64,000 nt of DNA, from assembly GCA_037200965.1 (NCBI GenBank), contig JBBCGK010000001.1, positions 608,001 to 672,000 on the forward strand. Direction: 5' to 3'. This DNA comes from a bacterium. GTDB taxonomy: Bacteria; Patescibacteriota; Minisyncoccia; Phycocordibacterales; Phycocordibacteraceae. This document shows, in pieces, positions 21,703 through 62,608 of this stretch (positions are counted from its first letter, which is position 1; every line of letters begins with the position of its first letter). Made by a program: the position numbers and the translations under genes. Under the pieces are notes generated by a model. That model ran no database searches. It saw only the letters and a list, made by a program, of their open reading frames with translations, and had not been told where the DNA came from.

Positions 21703-21874
21703 GACGGTAGCCTTTCGGGTTGGGTTGCCTTTCTTTCAAGAAGCTTCGCACTTCTTCCGCAAGTATATTTCTACAAGTCAAGGATGTCAATAGGTCGTAT
21801 GCTAAAATAGGGCTTACTTAAAGCATGTGCACAGTAGTGTGGAACGCGTTTGACACGAATATACCCTATAGAGT

Positions 21875-22678
21875 ATGATTAAACTCATGAAAAAAAGACA
21901 AGAGGACGCGTCAGAAACGCTTCTGTCTTTAGGGCTTTCAAGAAGGGAAGTAGGAGTGTATATCGCGCTTTTAGAGCTTGGACACGGGACGGTCACCCAG
22001 ATATCAAGAAAGGCGGGTATAAATAGGACGACTGGTTACGATATCCTTGATGCGTTAGCGCACAAGAACCTCGCGCGGCTCTCCGGTAAGGAGCCAAAGG
22101 AAGAATACGTGGCTGAATCTCCGGAAAAGCTCGTTACGCTGCTTGATGAGAAGCTGGCAGAGACACAAAAGCAGCTGATCCTTGCGAAGGAATTTCTCCC
22201 GCAACTCAAAGCGATGCATACGGTTCAGGATCGTCCGCAAGTACGGTTCTATGAGGGTGTCGAAGGACTCAAAGAAGTATATGAAGACACTTTGACTTCC
22301 CCGGAACCGATTCGTGCGTACGCCTGTATCGACGACATGCACAAGGCGCTCCCCAACTACTTTCCCGAGTACTATAAACGTCGCGCGCGCAAAGGCATCT
22401 CGATACGCGGCATAGTCCCCGAGACAAAAACGGCGATGGCGCAGGCTGCGTTTAATGCGGAGGAAAAACGCGATATAGCGTTCGTGCCTGCCGATAAGTA
22501 TTACTTCTCTCCGGAAATAAATATTTACGCTAATAAAGTTATGGTGGCATCGTGGCGCGAGAAGCTCGGCATCATCATAGAAAGCGCCGAGATCGCTGAT
22601 GCCATGAAAAAGATATATGAGCTGGCGTGGGCAGAAGCCAAGCGGCTTGATGCGGCGAACTCACCGGTGTCGACATAG
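21875..22678 (+). CDS. TrmB-family HTH transcriptional regulator (paralogue 2)
   Basis: HTH REVGVYIALLELGHGTVTQISRKAGINRTTGYDILDAL. Confidence 0.6.
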   Translation: MIKLMKKRQEDASETLLSLGLSRREVGVYIALLELGHGTVTQISRKAGINRTTGYDILDALAHKNLARLSGKEPKEEYVAESPEKLVTLLDEKLAETQKQLILAKEFLPQLKAMHTVQDRPQVRFYEGVEGLKEVYEDTLTSPEPIRAYACIDDMHKALPNYFPEYYKRRARKGISIRGIVPETKTAMAQAAFNAEEKRDIAFVPADKYYFSPEINIYANKVMVASWREKLGIIIESAEIADAMKKIYELAWAEAKRLDAANSPVST

Positions 22679-24383: not shown

Positions 24384-24503
24384 ACCTATATACTACTTTG
24401 GGTATGAGCGTGCTGTCAATCCAATGCAGTTCAAATCTCGTCCGCGAGCCCGCGCACTTCACAAAACCGCCTATCTGGGCGGCTTTGTGTTTAAGAGAAC
24501 GGA

Positions 24504-47952: not shown

Positions 47953-48151
47953 TGTGCCTGCCTTCAGCTTACGTATTTTAGCTGAACGGGCCTTGCGGCC
48001 ACAGGCACGGGGCGATTATACCCCAGCAGCATGAAGTTCCCAAGTAAGGTGTGAATTGCTCATAGTACGTAGGTTGCCTGCGGTGGTATTGCGTTTATGC
48101 GCCCTCTCTTATATAGTCTCCTTGACCCGCTTGCGGGTCGTATTTTCGTAA

Positions 48152-49029: not shown

Positions 49030-49047
49030 TCATTTCATAGTATCCGA

Positions 49048-49088
49048 AACACAAAAGACGGCCGCGCTACGGCCGTCTTTTGTGTTTG
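49048..49088. terminator. strong hairpin terminator directly after rpsG (also serves the convergent minus-strand gene)
   Basis: acaaaagacggccg-cgcta-cggccgtcttttgt. Confidence 0.6.
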
Positions 49089-49151
49089 CGGCGGTGAATA
49101 CAAAGCAAAGGGTACGGTCCTGAGACCGCACCCTTTCACTCACCCCTTCTC

Positions 49152-49661
49152 TTATCCGGACCGAACGAGCTGCTGTAGCACCCGCACCTGGTCTCCTTCG
49201 TACCGGGCTGCTGCCCGAAGAGTTTCGGCCGTTTTCATCCATTCCCCGATTGCGGTGTGTATGCCGGATCCGATAACCGCTCTCAGAGTACCTGGAAGGT
49301 CGTTCTTGGCCATATCGCCGCCCGGGAGGGAATCGAAGAAAGCGTCCCAAGAGAGCCTTGCGAGACAACCGTATCCGTCTATTTTTGGGGGCGGCTTCGG
49401 GCCAACCAAATACACGCGGACGAACCCGCCTTTGACGGTGACTGGTTTCCCGTCCTTGCGTTCAAGCGAGCCGGGAACGGGAGCGTCGAGCGCCGTAAGA
49501 ATTTCATAACCCGGCGGCATATCGAATGTGACGGCCGCGATTGCTTCGAGGAATGCGCGTTCGTTTCCGTCCGGGTGACGGGCGATAGCTTCGACCGGAA
49601 TGCAATGACCGGACAATTCCTCCAAGTGCGAGAAAGCGGCGATAGAGCTGATGATGCGCAT
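49152..49661 (-). CDS. hypothetical protein (cargo of the rpsG-fusA insertion)
   Basis: 169-aa ORF. Confidence 0.4.
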   Translation of the reverse strand: MRIISSIAAFSHLEELSGHCIPVEAIARHPDGNERAFLEAIAAVTFDMPPGYEILTALDAPVPGSLERKDGKPVTVKGGFVRVYLVGPKPPPKIDGYGCLARLSWDAFFDSLPGGDMAKNDLPGTLRAVIGSGIHTAIGEWMKTAETLRAAARYEGDQVRVLQQLVRSG

Positions 49662-49759
49662 GATTTCCTCCTTGCGCTAGAACGGATTTACGGAATCGAA
49701 TCCGGAAGCACCATAGCATGGCCGTCCGGTTTTTACCCTAAGCAGCCGGATTGCCGCAA

Positions 49760-50837
49760 CTTGCACAAGTTCAGATACATATGGCACTCCTCCTAACTGA
49801 GGAGCGATGCGTCAATTCAACATACTGAAGGATACCGAGGGCTGGTTGTATATGCGCGAGCGGAGCATACGCTTCCTGCATATGAGGAACAACGACGAGG
49901 TGCGGCATCGGGTCAAGGTGCTGGACTTCTGGAAAACGCACGGGGAGCGTGCGGCCAGGGACGCCTTCAGCGTCTCTCGCCGCACGCTCTTCCGTTGGCA
50001 GGCGAAGCTCGACCGCGCGCACGGGAGACTCGACGCGCTCGATCCCAAGTCGACGGCACCGAAGAATCGGAGGAGACGCATCGTCCTCCCCGAGGTCGAG
50101 ACGTTCATCCTGAAGGAGCGCGCGGAGCATCCGAGGCTCGGCAAGGCGAAGCTCGCAGCCCTGCTGCGGGAGGACGGGTACCGGGTATCCGAATCGTATG
50201 TCGGGAGGGTCGTCGCGGACCTCAAGAGGAGAGGGCTGCTGCTCCCGCACAAGCCGCTCTCATACTATGCGCGAAGCGGCACGTATCGGGAGAAGCCCGT
50301 ATCGAAGCGCACGAAGCTGCGCAGGCGGCACAAGCGGGGCATGGAGCTCGACACCGTCGTCCGCTTCATCGACGGCGTGAAGCGGTACGTCCTGACCGCC
50401 ATCGATGTCGAGAAGAAGTTCGCCTTCGCCGGCGCGTATACCGTCCACTCCTCCGCGTCCGCCGCCGATTTCCTCGCGCGCGTCATCGCGGTGTGCCCCT
50501 TCGACATCACGGAGCTCCAGACCGACAACGGCCCGGAGTTCGCCAAGAACTTCGAGGCGGGGTGCCGCGCCCTCGGCCTCACCCACTTCAATACGTTTCC
50601 CCGCAGCCCGAAGATGAACGCGTTCGTCGAGCGGTTCAACCGGACGATCTCGGAGGACTGCATCATGCTCAATCGGCCGCTCCTGCGGGACGACGTCGCG
50701 GCATTCAACCTGAAGCTGGTCGACTGGCTGCTCTGGTACAACGCCCGGCGTCCGCACGAGTCCCTGGGACAGGTGCCGCCGCTCCGGTATATACTCTCCT
50801 CATTAACGGCCGAGGAGTGCCAGAGGTACTGGACGCG
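49760..50837 (+). mobile_element. IS481-family element (copy 2); right end truncated/overlain by IS30 copy 2
   Basis: Tpase ORF 49807..; its reading frame runs into the IS30 terminal repeat at ~50836. Confidence 0.6.
49807..50835 (+). CDS. IS481-family DDE transposase (C-terminus fused into IS30 sequence in the ORF track)
   Basis: HTH plus rve core: TDNGPEF, RPHESLG. Confidence 0.75.
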
Positions 50838-51875
50838 TACGCCTGAACCCCACTCTAACTGCAACACTCACTTCCTCAGAAATATCGAGCGCGGTGATTC
50901 GAATTTCAGACGCTTGCGCGGCCGGTCATTGAGCTTCTTCACCACATGCGCCAGCTCCTCAGGGGTGATCAGGTTGAAGTTGAGCGAACGAGGAAAGTAC
51001 TGACGCAGGAGTCCGTTGGTATTCTCGTTGGTACCACGCTCCCAAGGACGGTGCGGGTATGCGAAGTACACGGTTGCCCCGCTCTTCTTCCCGAGTCGCT
51101 TCCAGTCGGCAAATTCTGGACCGTTGTCGAGCGTGATGGTCTTGCGTTTGGCACGCGGAATATGACGGAAGCGTGCGAGCGCAAGCGACGTGAGGAGCTC
51201 GGCGCGCATCTTGGGCAACAAGTATGCAACCAGGTATCCGCTCCTGCGATCCACAAAGGTGACAATGCGGACTCGCTTGTCGCTGCCTTGCACCGTATCG
51301 CCCTCCCAGTCGCCGAGCCGGCTTCGTCGTTCAATAATCGTTGGACGGTCATCAATACGCTGCTTCTTGGCCGCTTCACGAGCCTTCTCGCGTATTTTGG
51401 TACCGCGCCTGCGACGGTATTTGCCTTTGGATGATCTGAGGAACTGCTTCAGGTGCGGAGCACGCTCCTCAATATATCGGTATATGGTGCTGGCGGAGAC
51501 TGCACCCGTCACCCCTTCAATTTGCTCAGGAGAGTGGTGGTCTTTGAGCATACGCACCACCGTGCGCAAGAGCGCACCCTTGAGCACGCGAATACTGTCC
51601 ATTGCAGCAATGCGTTTCAGCTTCTTCTTTCTGCGTACTTCGCGTACATCATATCCCTCACGTCCGCCGTATTCGTTCACATGACGAGAGATCGATCCTG
51701 CATCCTTCTCAAGCGTACGTGCGATCTCTCGGATCGCGTGTCCTGCCCGCAGCATGCGGGCAATCACCGGCCAGTCTCCTGGCCCAATCTGGGTATGTGC
51801 CATATCCAGAGAGTGTGGAACCCAAAAGAGCTGTTGCAATTAGCCTGCAAACTTTGTTGCGATTAGGGTGGGGAT
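50838..51875 (-). mobile_element. IS30-family insertion sequence (copy 2, a different IS30 member)
   Basis: Tpase 50868..51839; IRs gtgttgcagttagagtgg (left, minus) and gttgcgattagggtgg (right). Confidence 0.7.
50868..51839 (-). CDS. IS30-family DDE transposase
   Basis: DDE domain, ...LNDRPRKRLKFESP C-terminus. Confidence 0.8.
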   Translation of the reverse strand: MQQLFWVPHSLDMAHTQIGPGDWPVIARMLRAGHAIREIARTLEKDAGSISRHVNEYGGREGYDVREVRRKKKLKRIAAMDSIRVLKGALLRTVVRMLKDHHSPEQIEGVTGAVSASTIYRYIEERAPHLKQFLRSSKGKYRRRRGTKIREKAREAAKKQRIDDRPTIIERRSRLGDWEGDTVQGSDKRVRIVTFVDRRSGYLVAYLLPKMRAELLTSLALARFRHIPRAKRKTITLDNGPEFADWKRLGKKSGATVYFAYPHRPWERGTNENTNGLLRQYFPRSLNFNLITPEELAHVVKKLNDRPRKRLKFESPRSIFLRK

Positions 51876-51962
51876 TCACCTACACAACTTTGACAGACCT
51901 TTGTCTATAGGTTATTATATCCATGGATTCCCGAGTGGCGGGACAGACAAAGGGAGACGTGC

Positions 51963-52391
51963 ATGAACAATCCTGAATTCCGCGAACTCGCGCAGGAAAT
52001 CGATCTGTTTTTGTATTCGGCTGACGGCGAGCGCATCACCGACTATCTGAAGTTCCATGAGAAGCGTATCGTCCTGTTCCGCTCCACGGACTTGGGCGTA
52101 TACCGCTGCTACGGCCTCATGTATGCGGGCTTCGCCTGCTGGGCGGATGCCGACGTCGAGCCCGACGCTGACCCGGCGCTTCGTTCGCTTGACGCTGAGT
52201 CATTCGTCGCGCGCTGGTTCAAGGAAACGGGCGACAACTCCGCCGCGTCGCTCGTCGAAGCGATCAGGCAGGGTTATAGGCGGTTGTGCGAAGAGGATGA
52301 AAACCCCCCGCTCACTGGCCTTGTCCTCGGAATTATCGTTTTCCTCGCCGTTTTCATCTTCCTTGGACTCAAGATCACGGGTCATCTCTGA
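51963..52391 (+). CDS. hypothetical protein with C-terminal TM anchor
   Basis: 142 aa, C-terminal LVLGIIVFLAVFIFLGL. Confidence 0.35.
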   Translation: MNNPEFRELAQEIDLFLYSADGERITDYLKFHEKRIVLFRSTDLGVYRCYGLMYAGFACWADADVEPDADPALRSLDAESFVARWFKETGDNSAASLVEAIRQGYRRLCEEDENPPLTGLVLGIIVFLAVFIFLGLKITGHL

Positions 52392-52549
52392 CGGCCCGTT
52401 CGCAAGAACCGGTACAACACTTGGGCGCGGGCCCGGACCACAAATCCGGGCCTTTGCTTTTCCTAGAAAACCCGCTACTCTATGGATAACGCCTCGGCGC
52501 TTTTATTTTTACCGCTTCCAGACACAACACATCCCTTACGTACTAGTAT

Positions 52550-58885: not shown

Positions 58886-59734
58886 ATGAAATCCTATCGC
58901 CCGACCAGCAAGAGCCGCCGTGCCATGACGACGCTCCCGTACAAGGAGCTCCTTTCCGGCGCGAAGCCGCATAAGCCGCTCATGGGCTCGAAGAAGCGCC
59001 AAGGGGGCCGCAACAACGCGGGCCGCGTGAGCGTCCGGCACCAGGGCGGCGGGCACAAGCGCCTCTATCGCGACGTCGATTTCAAGTACGACAAGAAAGG
59101 AATCCCGGCGAAGATCGAGACCGTCGAATATGATCCGTATCGCTCGGGCTTCATCGCGCTCGCGCTCTATGCCGACGGCGCCCGCCGCTACGTGCTCGCG
59201 CCCAAGGGTCTTTCGGTCGGCGATTCCTTCATCGTCGCCGAGGATGCGCCGCTTAAGAGCGGCAACCGACTCCCGATCGGGAAGATTCCCGTCGGCACCT
59301 TCATCTATAACGTCGAACTTCGCCCGGGCGCAGGCGCGCTTCTCGCCCGTTCTGCGGGAAACTACGCGGAAGTGGTCGCGCACGACCAGGGCTATGCTCA
59401 GGTTAAATTGCCGTCGACCGAAATCCGCAGGGTGTCCGATCTTTGCTGGGCTTCGGTGGGTTCGGTGGGGAACGAGGAATACAATCTCGTGAACCTCGGT
59501 AAGGCGGGCCGCTCGCGCTGGCTTGGCATCCGCCCGACGGTTCGCGGTACGGCCATGAACCCGGTCGACCATCCGCATGGCGGCGGCGAAGGAAGGCAGG
59601 GCCGCGGACTCAGGAGGGCGAAGAGCGCCTGGGGCAAGCCGACCGGCAAAGGCCAGAAGAGCCGCACGCCGAAGAAGTACTCGAACGTCTTCATCGTCTC
59701 GAGGAGGAAAGTCGGGAAGAAGAGGAAAGGATAA
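58886..59734 (+). CDS. rplB: 50S ribosomal protein L2
   Basis: Conserved L2 core (GRNxxGRITxRHxGGGHK-like: GRVSVRHQGGGHKR). Confidence 0.9.
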   Translation: MKSYRPTSKSRRAMTTLPYKELLSGAKPHKPLMGSKKRQGGRNNAGRVSVRHQGGGHKRLYRDVDFKYDKKGIPAKIETVEYDPYRSGFIALALYADGARRYVLAPKGLSVGDSFIVAEDAPLKSGNRLPIGKIPVGTFIYNVELRPGAGALLARSAGNYAEVVAHDQGYAQVKLPSTEIRRVSDLCWASVGSVGNEEYNLVNLGKAGRSRWLGIRPTVRGTAMNPVDHPHGGGEGRQGRGLRRAKSAWGKPTGKGQKSRTPKKYSNVFIVSRRKVGKKRKG

Positions 59735-60668
59735 TTTTACAAGGGTAATCCCTAATTCCTGCCACCAAACCCAGTGCCCTGAACGAGCGTGAGCAGACGC
59801 TCCTCCTGCTCGGCAAGCGTCTTCGTGCGGCGGTTGAACTTCCAGGCGATCTCTCCGACGAAGAGGTACAGATGCGTACGGCGCATGCCGCCGATGCATC
59901 CGAGACGACGCTTCAAGAGCCCCCAGAAGCCCTCGATGTTGTTCGTATGCACGTCGCCGCGTACGAGCTCTCCGCCGTCATGATCCACGTACTCGTGACG
60001 GTACCCCCGCTTCTTGAGGCCGCGGTATGTTTTGAAGCCGTCGGTATACACGTACGCTCCCTCCGGCACCAGCCGCTCGATCGTGCTGAAGATGGTCCTC
60101 CAATCAAGCTTCTTGGGGAGTATGGCGACATATACCTGTCCGGAGGTCCGCGAAAAGAGCCCGAAGATGGGAAGCTTGTCGGTCCCGTGACCGCGCTTCG
60201 TTTCCAGACGCCGGATGTGGAGACGTTTGTTCTTGCGCTGGCCGCCGATGTACGTTTCGTCCATCTCGATTGGACCGGGAAGCACGGCTGGCTGGTCAGC
60301 CGTCATGACCGTACGGAGATGGAGTGCCATGCGCTCCACGCGCGAATGCGGTATTCCCGTCTCCTCAACGATACGTTTGATCGTCCGCTCCCTGAGGAAG
60401 ACACGTATGCACTTCCGCCACTCGGCTTCCGTGCTGCGGATGCCCTCAACTGGAGCTGCGTGCCCGCTCCACTCGCGTCTGCACCGCCTGCACTTCAGTT
60501 TGTTCCTGCGGAGTTTCCAGGCACGGCGGAAGGCGCAATACGGACATACAGGAGCGGGCATATATGGTGGCACTATTAGGTATTGCACCACTGTGCCCGT
60601 CAGAGAGCCTCACGCAAGGATATTTCAAAGATATGTGGTGGCAGAGTTAGGGATTACCCTTTACAAAA
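59735..60668 (-). mobile_element. IS1595-family insertion sequence inserted 1 nt after the rplB stop
   Basis: Terminal IRs ttttacaagggtaatccctaa (59735-59755) and ttagggattaccctttacaaaa (60647-60668); tpase 59752..60591. Confidence 0.75.
59752..60591 (-). CDS. IS1595-family transposase (N-terminal zinc finger + DDE)
   Basis: CPYC...CRRC zinc finger, DDE_Tnp_IS1595-like core (DETYIGG..., TDGFKTY, HTNNIEGFW). Confidence 0.8.
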   Translation of the reverse strand: MVQYLIVPPYMPAPVCPYCAFRRAWKLRRNKLKCRRCRREWSGHAAPVEGIRSTEAEWRKCIRVFLRERTIKRIVEETGIPHSRVERMALHLRTVMTADQPAVLPGPIEMDETYIGGQRKNKRLHIRRLETKRGHGTDKLPIFGLFSRTSGQVYVAILPKKLDWRTIFSTIERLVPEGAYVYTDGFKTYRGLKKRGYRHEYVDHDGGELVRGDVHTNNIEGFWGLLKRRLGCIGGMRRTHLYLFVGEIAWKFNRRTKTLAEQEERLLTLVQGTGFGGRN

Positions 60669-60698
60669 GAAAAAGCCCCGCCAGACCGGCGGGGCTTT
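60669..60698. terminator. bidirectional terminator adjacent to the IS right end
   Basis: aaaagccccgcc-agac-cggcggggcttttt. Confidence 0.55.
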
Positions 60699-60709
60699 TT
60701 CTTTCCGGC

Positions 60710-61495
60710 TTATTGGTATTCGGGCTTCAAGATGTCCGCGAAATCGGAACGCGGCAGGCGCACGGTCTGCGGACCTATGGCATACGGGCCGACGGCGTAA
60801 GGAGGGAAGAAAATAAGGAGATCGGTACCGTCAAGCGCAAAGAACTGGAAATTTCCCGCGTCGTCCGGCGACGTTCCGGTGTCGACGAAATCCGGAAGCG
60901 CGTACTCCCCGAGCGCTGCGTACAGGAATGCCCGCGATGCTCTGGAGAGCGCGTCGAGATACGGCGCGCTACGCATGAACAGATCGCCAAGTTGGAGTGC
61001 CTTGCCGGTCGTGGAATCGAATGTGAACGTGCGGTAGTAGCTGTTGGGGTGCGCACCGAGCGTATCCTCGTAAATACTGAAGACATAGGAGAGCGTACGG
61101 GGTGACGCATATGCCGCATACTCGATATCCTGCGCGTATTTCTTATCAGGCCCGAGTTCCTGAAGTTTTATATCTTCTTCCGTAAGGTTTCCGAGGCGGT
61201 TCTGGTTCTTGAATTCCGCTTCCGCGGCCAGTACCCATGTCTCCATGACCTTTGCCGCATGTGCGTCCGCCTCCGCCCCGGCGGTTACAAGAAGCGGGGT
61301 TGATGCGGGATAGATGGCGTCGATGAGGTAGTAGTCGGCGTGGTCCGCAACCGTCTTGGAGGTCGTAGTTGCATTTTCCCCGGAAGGGACAGGGGCCACT
61401 CCGGGTGCCGGATTCTCGGCCATGTACCAGAGAAGGCAGGCAAGTATGGCAACCAGCACCGCACCGAGCGCGATCCGTTCGCAAGTGGTGTTCAT
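60710..61495 (-). CDS. membrane-anchored DUF3298/DUF4163-like (RsiV-like) protein
   Basis: N-terminal TM helix; general resemblance to RsiV-type domains (low certainty). Confidence 0.4.
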   Translation of the reverse strand: MNTTCERIALGAVLVAILACLLWYMAENPAPGVAPVPSGENATTTSKTVADHADYYLIDAIYPASTPLLVTAGAEADAHAAKVMETWVLAAEAEFKNQNRLGNLTEEDIKLQELGPDKKYAQDIEYAAYASPRTLSYVFSIYEDTLGAHPNSYYRTFTFDSTTGKALQLGDLFMRSAPYLDALSRASRAFLYAALGEYALPDFVDTGTSPDDAGNFQFFALDGTDLLIFFPPYAVGPYAIGPQTVRLPRSDFADILKPEYQ

Positions 61496-61552
61496 GCGAG
61501 AAAGTGTAGCACCCGCATATCAGGGAAAAATGAAGGGCTCCGGAATAGCCAA

Positions 61553-61590
61553 ATGAAAGGGCCCGGGCGGTAATGCCACCCGGGCCCCCC
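61553..61590 (-). terminator. hairpin terminator for the minus-strand gene ending at 61600
   Basis: gggcccgggcgg-taatgcc-acccgggccc with T-run on the minus strand. Confidence 0.45.
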
Positions 61591-61599
61591 AACGAAGGC

Positions 61600-62049
61600 T
61601 TAAGATTTGCAGGGACCTGTCCCGCAGGTTTTGCAACTTTTGCACGTTCCGTGTCTTATCCCTTTTCTCTTTCGGGAATTTCGCGCCTCTTCTCCGGGCA
61701 TGGCTTCGCCGAAGCGCGCGAAATAGAGCTTCGAGGTTCTCGCGTACCCTCTGCGGGAGCTTGCGTTCGGCTCAAGTTCAGGCTGATGGTGGAGGAAACC
61801 GCCGAAGACCGTCTGACAGTCCGAAGCGTACTTCTTCGTCATCAGGATATGTTCATGCCAGGCCCAGTCGATCATGTGAGACGGTGCCAGAGATTTGCGC
61901 GGATTTTCGCGGCAAAGCGTGTAGAACCGGCGCAAACCGAGAACGCACATCTTTGCGACCGGTTCGGTAAGACGCAAGGCAAGTTTGTGCTCCACTGCCC
62001 CGAGGTCGAGTCTCCGGATAGCGCTTGGAAGGTTCTTTTTGACGGCCAT
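61600..62049 (-). CDS. hypothetical protein with Cys-rich C-terminal tail (CKSCKTCGTGPCKS)
   Basis: 149-aa ORF. Confidence 0.4.
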   Translation of the reverse strand: MAVKKNLPSAIRRLDLGAVEHKLALRLTEPVAKMCVLGLRRFYTLCRENPRKSLAPSHMIDWAWHEHILMTKKYASDCQTVFGGFLHHQPELEPNASSRRGYARTSKLYFARFGEAMPGEEARNSRKRKGIRHGTCKSCKTCGTGPCKS

Positions 62050-62257
62050 CTCGGCCTCCTGCTGTGATTGCCGTTCCAGAGTAGCAAGGCGCGCAGCACC
62101 AGGTCAACCATAGAATCATACAAGTATAATGTGTTTTGTCTACGTTTTAAAACGGCCTTGCAAGTACGAGCTCTTTTGAAACGGTACGATTTGACTCTTT
62201 ATCCCGGCTCCTGTATCTTGCACCTATCTCGCGCTATGCGCGGGCTTTACCTTACTC

Positions 62258-62608
62258 ATGTCCCGATCGCTCAAGAAAGGTCCCTACGTGGACGCGAAGC
62301 TCATAAAGAAGCTTCGCGACAAGAAACCGGCTACCGCCGGGGTGATTAAGACGTGGGCGAGAGGTTCCCAGATCGCCCCGGAGATGGTCGGCTTCACGTT
62401 CGGCGTCTATAACGGACAGAAGCACCTCGAGGTGCTCGTCTCCGAGGAGATGGTAGGGCACCGCCTCGGCGAATTCTCCCCGACCAAGAAGTTCGTCCGG
62501 CACGGAGGCAAGATGCAGAAGGAGCTCGAGCAGAAGCGCCAGGAGTCCGAGATCGCGTCCGCGAAGGCCGCCTCAGCCGCTCCTGCCAAGGCCCCGGCAA
62601 AGAAATAA
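62258..62608 (+). CDS. rpsS: 30S ribosomal protein S19 (A/K-rich C-terminal extension)
   Basis: [11 protein letters not shown]...[13 protein letters not shown]. Confidence 0.9.

Follow-up and report, generated by a model that had tools for sequence, protein, structure and literature searches.

How rplB and rpsS, neighbours in the classical S10 operon, came to be parted by a transposable element is the question raised by the 64-kb stretch of DNA analysed here (the window), which is part of a metagenome-assembled, Kaiserbacteria-like Patescibacteria genome. In E. coli, the S10 operon (rpsJ-rplC-rplD-rplW-rplB-rpsS-rplV-rpsC-rplP-rpmC-rpsQ) is a single unit. On the plus strand of the window, tuf, rpsJ, rplC, rplD, rplW and rplB are followed by three minus-strand genes, after which the plus strand resumes with rpsS, rplV, rpsC and rplP. 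The first of the three intervening genes is the transposase gene of an insertion sequence (IS) of the IS1595 family, and a first-pass annotation of the window had proposed that this IS, together with two cargo genes, interrupted the operon. The reading strongly favoured here is a different one, namely that the S10 cluster of this lineage natively consists of two units with a spacer of accessory genes between them, and that the IS1595-family element was the last to land in this spacer, probably with a near-neutral outcome.

This reading rests in the first place on the comparison of rplB-centred loci taken from species-representative genomes and metagenomes, where labels such as L085 or L167 denote individual loci or contigs. 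The best rplB relatives in the genome collection were Kaiserbacteria/Paceibacteria with up to 70% identity, and metagenome relatives reached 92-96%. With the spacing counted between the point where the rplB match ends and the point where rpsS begins, the 26 Patescibacteria-like loci (rplB at least 59% identical) gave a median of 741 bp, with at least 140 bp in 23 of them; the median in 121 loci from other phyla was 30 bp and the maximum 239 bp. Several further relatives contained no rpsS within 0.9-4.8 kb after rplB. A strong terminator composed of an A-tract, a hairpin and a T-tract was found directly 3' of rplB in about 18 of 28 relatives, and in the window the terminator directly follows the rplB stop once the IS is subtracted. 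The features that bound the two units are as follows.

58886..59734, plus strand: rplB, encoding ribosomal protein L2 and closing the upstream unit, matching Pfam Ribosomal_L2_N and Ribosomal_L2_C
60666..60704, unstranded: bidirectional intrinsic terminator for rplB (plus strand) and a DUF3298 gene (minus strand), with 17-nt arms 100% complementary and A-tract/T-tract flanks
62191..62219, plus strand: promoter of the rpsS-rplV-rpsC-rplP unit, TTGACT-N17-TATCTT, from a consensus scan and conserved in relatives
62258..62608, plus strand: rpsS, encoding ribosomal protein S19 and opening the downstream unit, PF00203 at 2.5e-32

The first-pass annotation had noted a bidirectional terminator following the IS and had predicted a promoter for rpsS-rplV-rpsC-rplP somewhere within 62050-62257, and these two features bear it out. 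The hexamers of the rpsS promoter and their 17-nt spacing are identical in L085, L086, L165, L166 and L167, and most of the more distant relatives, read by eye, carry TTGAC(A/T)-N16-18-TAnnAT at the same place. Even in two of the three loci with a gap below 100 bp (L090 and L096), a promoter-like site, again found by eye, overlaps the end of rplB or lies just past it. Judged by sequence, a single-unit S10 operon fails as a description of this locus, as the terminator and the promoter both lie between rplB and rpsS and the same layout is repeated in relatives. By this comparison, the operon break is older than the IS and clade-wide, with a terminator after rplB and a promoter before rpsS constituting the ancestral layout of the lineage; it is thus not the IS that interrupted the operon. 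Nor is the unusual tolerance of IS activity inside ribosomal operons that had been proposed demonstrated, since the insertion hit an already existing inter-operon spacer. As compared to the classical S10 operon, the ribosomal gene order is fully conserved, but this Patescibacteria clade differs by the terminator after rplB, by the promoter before rpsS and by a junction whose variable accessory DNA ranges in length from 0.1 kb to over 4 kb.

The second line of evidence comes from the IS itself, whose ends and reading frame are as follows.

59743..60659, minus strand: IS1595-family insertion sequence of 917 bp, from a 919-nt identity to L083 and L084, with a left boundary uncertain by 2 nt
59736..59742, unstranded: left copy of the target-site duplication, TTTACAA, read from the sequence and present as a single copy at the empty site of L167
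60660..60666, unstranded: right copy of the target-site duplication, TTTACAA, read from the sequence
59743..59767, unstranded: terminal inverted repeat at the end downstream of the transposase gene, GGGTAATCCCTAATTCCTGCCACCA, from a repeat finder and gapped comparison
60636..60659, unstranded: terminal inverted repeat at the end upstream of the transposase gene (reverse complement GGGTAATCCCTAACTCTGCCACCA), from the same two sources
59752..60561, minus strand: transposase gene, 269 aa from its ATG or 279 aa from a GTG at 60591, matching PF12762 and NF033547
60560..60584, unstranded: additional, subterminal occurrence of the inverted-repeat motif, sharing 80% identity with 60631-60655 (direct-repeat family D2)

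The inverted repeats are about 25 nt long and imperfect, with one mismatch and one indel that leave approximately 23 of 25 positions matching in the gapped comparison; the repeat finder placed the inverted arms at 59741-59758 and 60644-60661, and the core GGGTAATCCCTAA is present exactly twice in the window. Since the motif is found exactly twice and other contigs contain an identical 919-nt stretch, the match of the repeats is not fortuitous. The recognition of an IS1595-family element with real inverted repeats between rplB and rpsS is hence upheld, whereas the positions first given for the repeats, 59735-59755 and 60647-60668, need correction because their outer bases belong to the target duplication; likewise, the IS body begins 9 nt after the rplB stop and not 1 nt after it. 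A 7-bp AT-rich direct repeat, TTTACAA, abuts both ends of the IS. The element contains one reading frame within its 917-919 bp, whose product matches PF12762 (DDE_Tnp_IS1595) with 99.4 bits against a cut-off of 27 (2.6e-28, profile positions 2-153 of 153) and NF033547, 'IS1595 family transposase', with 120.9 bits against a cut-off of 75 (6.6e-35). The zinc-ribbon profile PF12760 gave 18.3 bits (E = 0.0023), under its cut-off of 25.4, and CPYC...CRRC cysteine pairs are visible. The catalytic blocks EMDETYIG, VYTDGFKTY, HTNNIEGFWGLLK (HTNNIEGFW) and GEIAWKFN were read by eye in the 269-aa product as the D...D...N/E site of the family with its HxNxIExFW and ExxFRxN blocks, and their spacing resembles the catalytic-site pattern of ISApl4, a member of the IS1595 family, as quoted in PMC12561309. 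The 269-aa product is already on record at NCBI as 'IS1595 family transposase', and an exact look-up of the 279-aa product from the GTG start returned no record. Approximately 600 related transposases were found, mostly on contigs of about 1 kb, one of them labelled Kerfeldbacteria, with 56-72% identity among those listed; the nearest are about 70% identical and all of them are metagenomic.

The element is, in sum, an IS1595-family insertion sequence with an intact transposase and real inverted repeats. Members of this family range in size from about 0.7 to 1.1 kb (ISfinder). With the family, including its IS1016-like and IS1595-like subgroups and examples such as ISApl4 (PMC12561309), the element shares a single DDE transposase matching the family profiles, N-terminal cysteine pairs suggestive of a zinc ribbon, a size below 1 kb, inverted repeats with GGG at their start, a target duplication that is short and AT-rich, and the presence of multiple identical copies that break short-read assemblies. 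The IS1016 subgroup, in particular, is described as having 7-9-bp AT-rich repeats and inverted repeats starting with GGGG (PMC12561309). Differences from the family are the new sequence, a duplication of 7 bp and not the more usual 8 bp, the Patescibacteria (candidate phyla radiation) host and the extra subterminal copy of the inverted-repeat motif. The latter lies 71 nt from the terminal repeat at the transposase-upstream end and overlaps the transposase start codon; it may represent a candidate second transposase-binding site. The IS event itself is ordinary, being a new sequence in a known IS family that landed in an inter-operon spacer.

The same element was found elsewhere: an identical copy lies beside unrelated genes in L083 (GCA_015655515.1, contig JAATEX010000081.1), and L084 (Logan, run SRR28211700) is a 919-nt collapsed repeat contig consisting of this element. 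The window copy, L083 and L084 are 100% identical across 919 nt, and the repeat common to all copies corresponds to 59741-60659; given this identity, the element is probably a multi-copy IS that was active recently. No further copy was found within the 64 kb of the window. An IS of this kind is a repeat that breaks short-read assemblies and the source is a metagenome-assembled genome, so that one might suspect a repeated IS mis-joined between rplB and the terminator, with the empty site on the true chromosome. However, the Logan contigs L001 (rplC to rplB) and L002 (rpsC to the DUF3298 gene), made by a different short-read assembler, each run from unique flanks about 30 nt into an IS end and stop there, which is how a repeat should behave in a de Bruijn graph, and since both junctions are thus reproduced they can be regarded as confirmed. 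Moreover, an empty site was recovered in L167 (rplB 92.6% identical), in which the rplB stop is followed by ATTTTACAAA, the A-tract/hairpin/T-tract terminator and the end of the DUF3298 gene with a single TTTACAA, and the window minus the IS and minus one heptamer aligns to this site. The heptamer present once in L167 is perfectly duplicated in the window, a mark of transposition and not of a mis-join, and the empty-site string for the locus under study, GGATAATTTTACAAAAGAAAAAGCCCC, is bridged by neither of the Logan contigs of the sample. An assembly artefact is therefore highly improbable. The proposal that the IS and its two neighbours (59735-62257) moved as one unit, broke an intact rplB-rpsS operon and forced the acquisition of a new rpsS promoter concerns the following minus-strand features.

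60710..61495, minus strand: membrane-anchored DUF3298/RsiV-family gene, 261 aa with an N-terminal membrane helix, PF11738 at 8.7e-10
61556..61590, minus strand: terminator-like hairpin followed by UUUCAUUU, 3' of the 149-aa gene; the 66 nt at 61540-61605 fold at -37.3 kcal/mol (z = -3.9)
61600..62049, minus strand: 149-aa GRDP-like/UCP032817-like gene with a Cys-rich C-terminal tail, from a precomputed PF27765 match and HMMER relatives
62115..62142, minus strand: promoter-like site of the 149-aa gene, TAGACA-N16-TATGAT, 10 of 12 consensus positions and a consensus match only

The two genes themselves, a membrane-anchored DUF3298-like gene and a Cys-rich gene on the opposite strand before rpsS, had been correctly described, the former being supported by PF11738 and the latter by its 149-aa frame with the Cys-rich tail. 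Their joint movement with the IS would account for three contiguous genes that are all opposite to the ribosomal strand and fill the whole gap, and some IS1595-family members, namely the ISNha5 group, do carry passenger genes. Nevertheless, the target duplication encloses only the 917-bp IS, the copies in L083 and L084 end at the same 919 nt and contain neither gene, and no third inverted-repeat-like sequence was detected in 60670-62300, where probes of 28 and 30 nt gave a best local score of 9. In addition, DUF3298 homologues occupy this locus in six contigs that carry no IS there (L085, L087, L165, L166, L167 and the JGI 3300045391 contig), the empty site exists in L167, and the promoter and leader of rpsS are conserved in relatives that lack the IS. 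A composite or passenger-gene element is thus contradicted on two counts, as the genes lie outside the duplication and relatives that lack the IS here nevertheless have the DUF3298 gene in this position. On these grounds, comprising the duplication that brackets the IS alone, the missing outer repeat, the other copies devoid of both genes and the DUF3298 gene at IS-free loci, the two neighbouring genes are not IS cargo by sequence comparison, and their movement as one unit with the IS can be considered next to impossible. The first-pass annotation had itself allowed that related genomes might hold the same genes natively between rplB and rpsS; this was found for the DUF3298 gene and not for the 149-aa gene, which was absent in every relative with readable spacer DNA.

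With a natively two-unit cluster and the IS as the latest arrival, the history of the locus is as follows. Comparison with relatives shows that ancestrally the first unit extended from rpsJ to rplB and ended at the bidirectional intrinsic terminator, and that the second, from rpsS-rplV-rpsC-rplP onward, had its own sigma-70-type promoter, with a leader made of a short hairpin and a U-rich stretch. Between the two units, the spacer held accessory genes varying by genome, with the membrane-anchored DUF3298/RsiV-family gene as the ancestral occupant in this genus. Later, the 149-aa GRDP-like gene, together with its own promoter-like site and terminator hairpin, joined the spacer on the rpsS-promoter side of the DUF3298 gene, and in the latest step the 917-bp IS entered the AT-rich TTTACAA between the rplB stop and the terminator hairpin with duplication of the heptamer. 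As a consequence, the 3' untranslated region of rplB would be 924 nt longer and antisense to the transposase gene, and the transposase may be expressed less owing to read-through out of the rplB unit, which is highly transcribed. The insertion was probably near-neutral, because no co-transcribed genes were parted and no coding or terminator sequence was destroyed. It could instead have altered expression, for example because rplB is now uncoupled from its terminator, because outward or antisense transcripts enter rplB or because the DUF3298 gene suffers interference; the insertion would then be under positive selection, or else slightly deleterious and short-lived. The transposase frame indeed ends 9 nt from the IS end and is aimed at rplB with no terminator between, the untranslated region of rplB gains the above 924 nt, and the identical copies imply a recent insertion on which selection has perhaps yet to act. 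However, no promoter is disrupted either, the same spacer takes many different insertions in relatives and no outward promoter was found by the consensus scan, which makes a non-neutral insertion unlikely. Several points weigh against the history proposed here. The left end of the IS is uncertain by 2 nt, and an alternative boundary would give a 919-bp element with a 5-bp duplication, TTTAC; even at 7 bp, the duplication departs from the 8 bp usual for much of the IS1595 family. The Logan contigs possibly come from the source genome's own sample, and hence exclude an assembler artefact without being independent biological replicates. The promoter, the terminators and the neutrality all rest on sequence and conservation, and the hairpins upstream of rpsS were chosen by eye and have modest stability, with z from -0.1 to -3.6; as each was picked by eye and is only modestly stable, the leader element is assigned no function.

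Concerning the spacer genes in more breadth, the 261-aa protein scored 39.8 bits against the cut-off of 24.1 for PF11738 and is named 'RsiV family protein' at NCBI. An esterase function is not claimed for it, since the Rv3036c esterase model gave 55.5 bits against a cut-off of 200. Each of its closest homologues (61%, 57% and 54% identity) is found in the rplB-rpsS spacer, on the opposite strand so that it converges with rplB and diverges from rpsS, and none of these loci has an IS; the near relatives carrying such homologues have rplB 92-96% identical and rpsS and rplV about 90% identical. Among the more distant relatives, whose rplB is 78-79% identical to that of the window, three states were observed: a full DUF3298 homologue in L085, a truncated remnant in L087 and only the terminator and promoter in L086. 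Because the window falls outside this group of three by rplB identity, the DUF3298 gene was probably ancestral in the spacer and was lost in L086.

For the 149-aa protein, an exhaustive HMMER search yielded 5167 representative relatives at E <= 0.001, several of which match the GRDP-like PF07173, three of them above its cut-off. PF27765 was obtained for this protein in precomputed matches only, and local Pfam (even at E = 1) and NCBIfam gave no match. A word-indexed homologue search returned the protein itself alone, a metagenome scan found no relatives and a sequence search of solved structures gave no match. Taken with its distribution, the 149-aa gene is best described, by comparison of the available spacers, as a lineage-specific addition that is a real member of a large family. 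The first hexamer of its promoter-like site aligns with TTGACA in L165 and L167. In the JGI 3300045391 contig, an uncharacterised 112-aa gene stands where the window has the 149-aa gene. The GC content at third codon positions is 0.64-0.67 in both accessory genes and 0.76-0.90 in the ribosomal genes; this lower value was not used as a sign of transfer, since differences in expression level explain it equally well.

Between the rpsS promoter and the rpsS start codon, one further feature was recognised.

62228..62244, plus strand: hairpin in the rpsS leader, CUCGCGC-uau-GCGCGGG, with a U-rich tract behind it, ending 13 nt ahead of the rpsS start; the 38-nt leader folds at -10.3 kcal/mol (z = -2.2)

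A hairpin that begins 4-9 nt past the second hexamer of the promoter and precedes a U-rich run recurs before rpsS in family-level relatives (L003-L018, L085-L094 and L165-L167), and the stem changes between lineages are compensatory (CCCGC/GCGGG, AGCUC/GAGCU, AAGCCC/GGGCUU and others). The hairpin is treated here as a conserved element that could serve as a 5' stabiliser or an attenuator. Its interpretation as a terminator of an upstream gene was rejected, as L086 has a separate rplB terminator followed by the promoter and the hairpin, and in the window no minus-strand gene ends there. A search of the whole window against Rfam at gathering thresholds gave zero matches, be it to a tRNA, a leader or another known RNA. 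The leader controlled by L4 in the S10 operon of E. coli is a known example of a ribosomal-protein leader. With such leaders and attenuators, the element shares a hairpin and a U-run between the promoter and the first gene, but it comprises just a 5-7-bp hairpin a few nt past the predicted transcription start, has no Rfam match and is possibly a mere 5' stabilising stem-loop. A similar hairpin precedes rpsL in the window at approximately 48105-48150, and seven other promoter-like sites in the window lack it.

Upstream of the first hexamer of the rpsS promoter, a block at 62146-62190 shows conservation in L165, L166 and L167, and partial conservation in L085 and L086. The repeat TTTTnAAACGG is present in it twice, as TTTTAAAACGG and TTTTGAAACGG at a distance of about 31 nt, and the block may be a candidate UP element or regulator site. 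The rpsS promoter is one of eight sites of the form TTGACW-N16-18-TANNNT in the window, where 0.8 would be expected, corresponding to an approximately ten-fold enrichment. Several of these sites, such as 21850-21879 and 24390-24419, are separated from a start codon by only 6-7 nt, and this short distance suggests leaderless or very-short-leader mRNAs. A visible Shine-Dalgarno sequence is missing from most ribosomal genes in the window.

Across the relatives, the DNA between rplB and rpsS holds MazE/MazF, or pyrF, a phosphoribosyltransferase gene and pyrD with dgkA, or a 1007-aa PKD/CARDB protein with an IS200-like gene, or HepT/MNT with an IS1595-like transposase, or small coiled-coil proteins. 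It resembles the variable gene-insertion hotspots known between core genes in its fixed core flanks, in cargo that changes among relatives and in the enrichment of this cargo in toxin-antitoxin modules and IS (MazEF, HepT/MNT, IS200-like, IS1595-like). The junction differs from such hotspots in that it sits inside a ribosomal-protein supercluster and shows neither an integrase nor an attachment site; its insertions resemble independent small events and not one island. It is conceivable, though we regard it as a tentative idea that is rather less than probable, that rplB|rpsS is a maintained operon break, with an rpsS leader acting as an undescribed attenuator or autoregulatory element, and that the break constitutes a permissive landing pad, in which case accessory genes, toxin-antitoxin modules and IS would gather at a landing pad inside a near-invariant ribosomal supercluster. 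In itself, the rplB|rpsS split is a modest comparative-genomics observation and no new kind of system. Searches of the literature on ribosomal operon organisation in Patescibacteria and on IS at rplB/rpsS found nothing on point, as judged by titles, and a clade-wide rplB|rpsS split with variable cargo and a conserved promoter-hairpin leader did not come up in these searches. Of practical relevance is that the block of ribosomal-protein genes employed as syntenic markers in candidate-phyla-radiation phylogenomics is not contiguous at rplB|rpsS in this clade, which affects contig-level marker extraction and synteny-based binning checks. In addition, the internal promoter before rpsS seems to have made a conserved-operon junction into a variable spacer, providing a natural case for operon divisibility.

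Some occupants of the junction can be described more closely. In L092 (8835-11508), the DNA behind rplB encodes two proteins without assignment, the HepT/MNT toxin-antitoxin pair and an IS1595-family transposase distinct from that of the window (38% identical), with no rpsS before the contig end; this transposase marks a second, independent IS1595-family element in the DNA after rplB. Small coiled-coil proteins sharing a C-terminal DHxRRITxLExA motif are encoded in L085 (3216-3686, 156 aa) and L165 (5740-6000, 86 aa), and as they lie between rplB and the DUF3298 gene in both relatives, they are a recurrent spacer occupant. Other junctions of the ribosomal cluster are open too, with a 186-aa gene between rpsJ and rplC in the JGI 3300045391 contig, fusA and tuf about 2 kb apart in L092 and L095, and tuf and rpsJ about 0.8 kb apart in L007.

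Within the window, the interval from rpsG to fusA (49030-52549, 3.5 kb), whose insertion the first-pass annotation had also mentioned, contains two integrase-core (rve) transposase genes.

49807-51003, plus strand: 398-aa rve/HTH_32 transposase gene in the rpsG-fusA interval
50868-51839, minus strand: 323-aa rve/HTH_38 transposase gene, IS30-like in appearance, in the same interval

The two frames overlap by 136 bp, and two more unassigned frames of 169 aa and 142 aa are present. As rpsG and fusA are adjacent in two relatives, with distances of 13 bp in L010 and 79 bp in L092, the insertion between rpsG and fusA appears to be lineage-specific.

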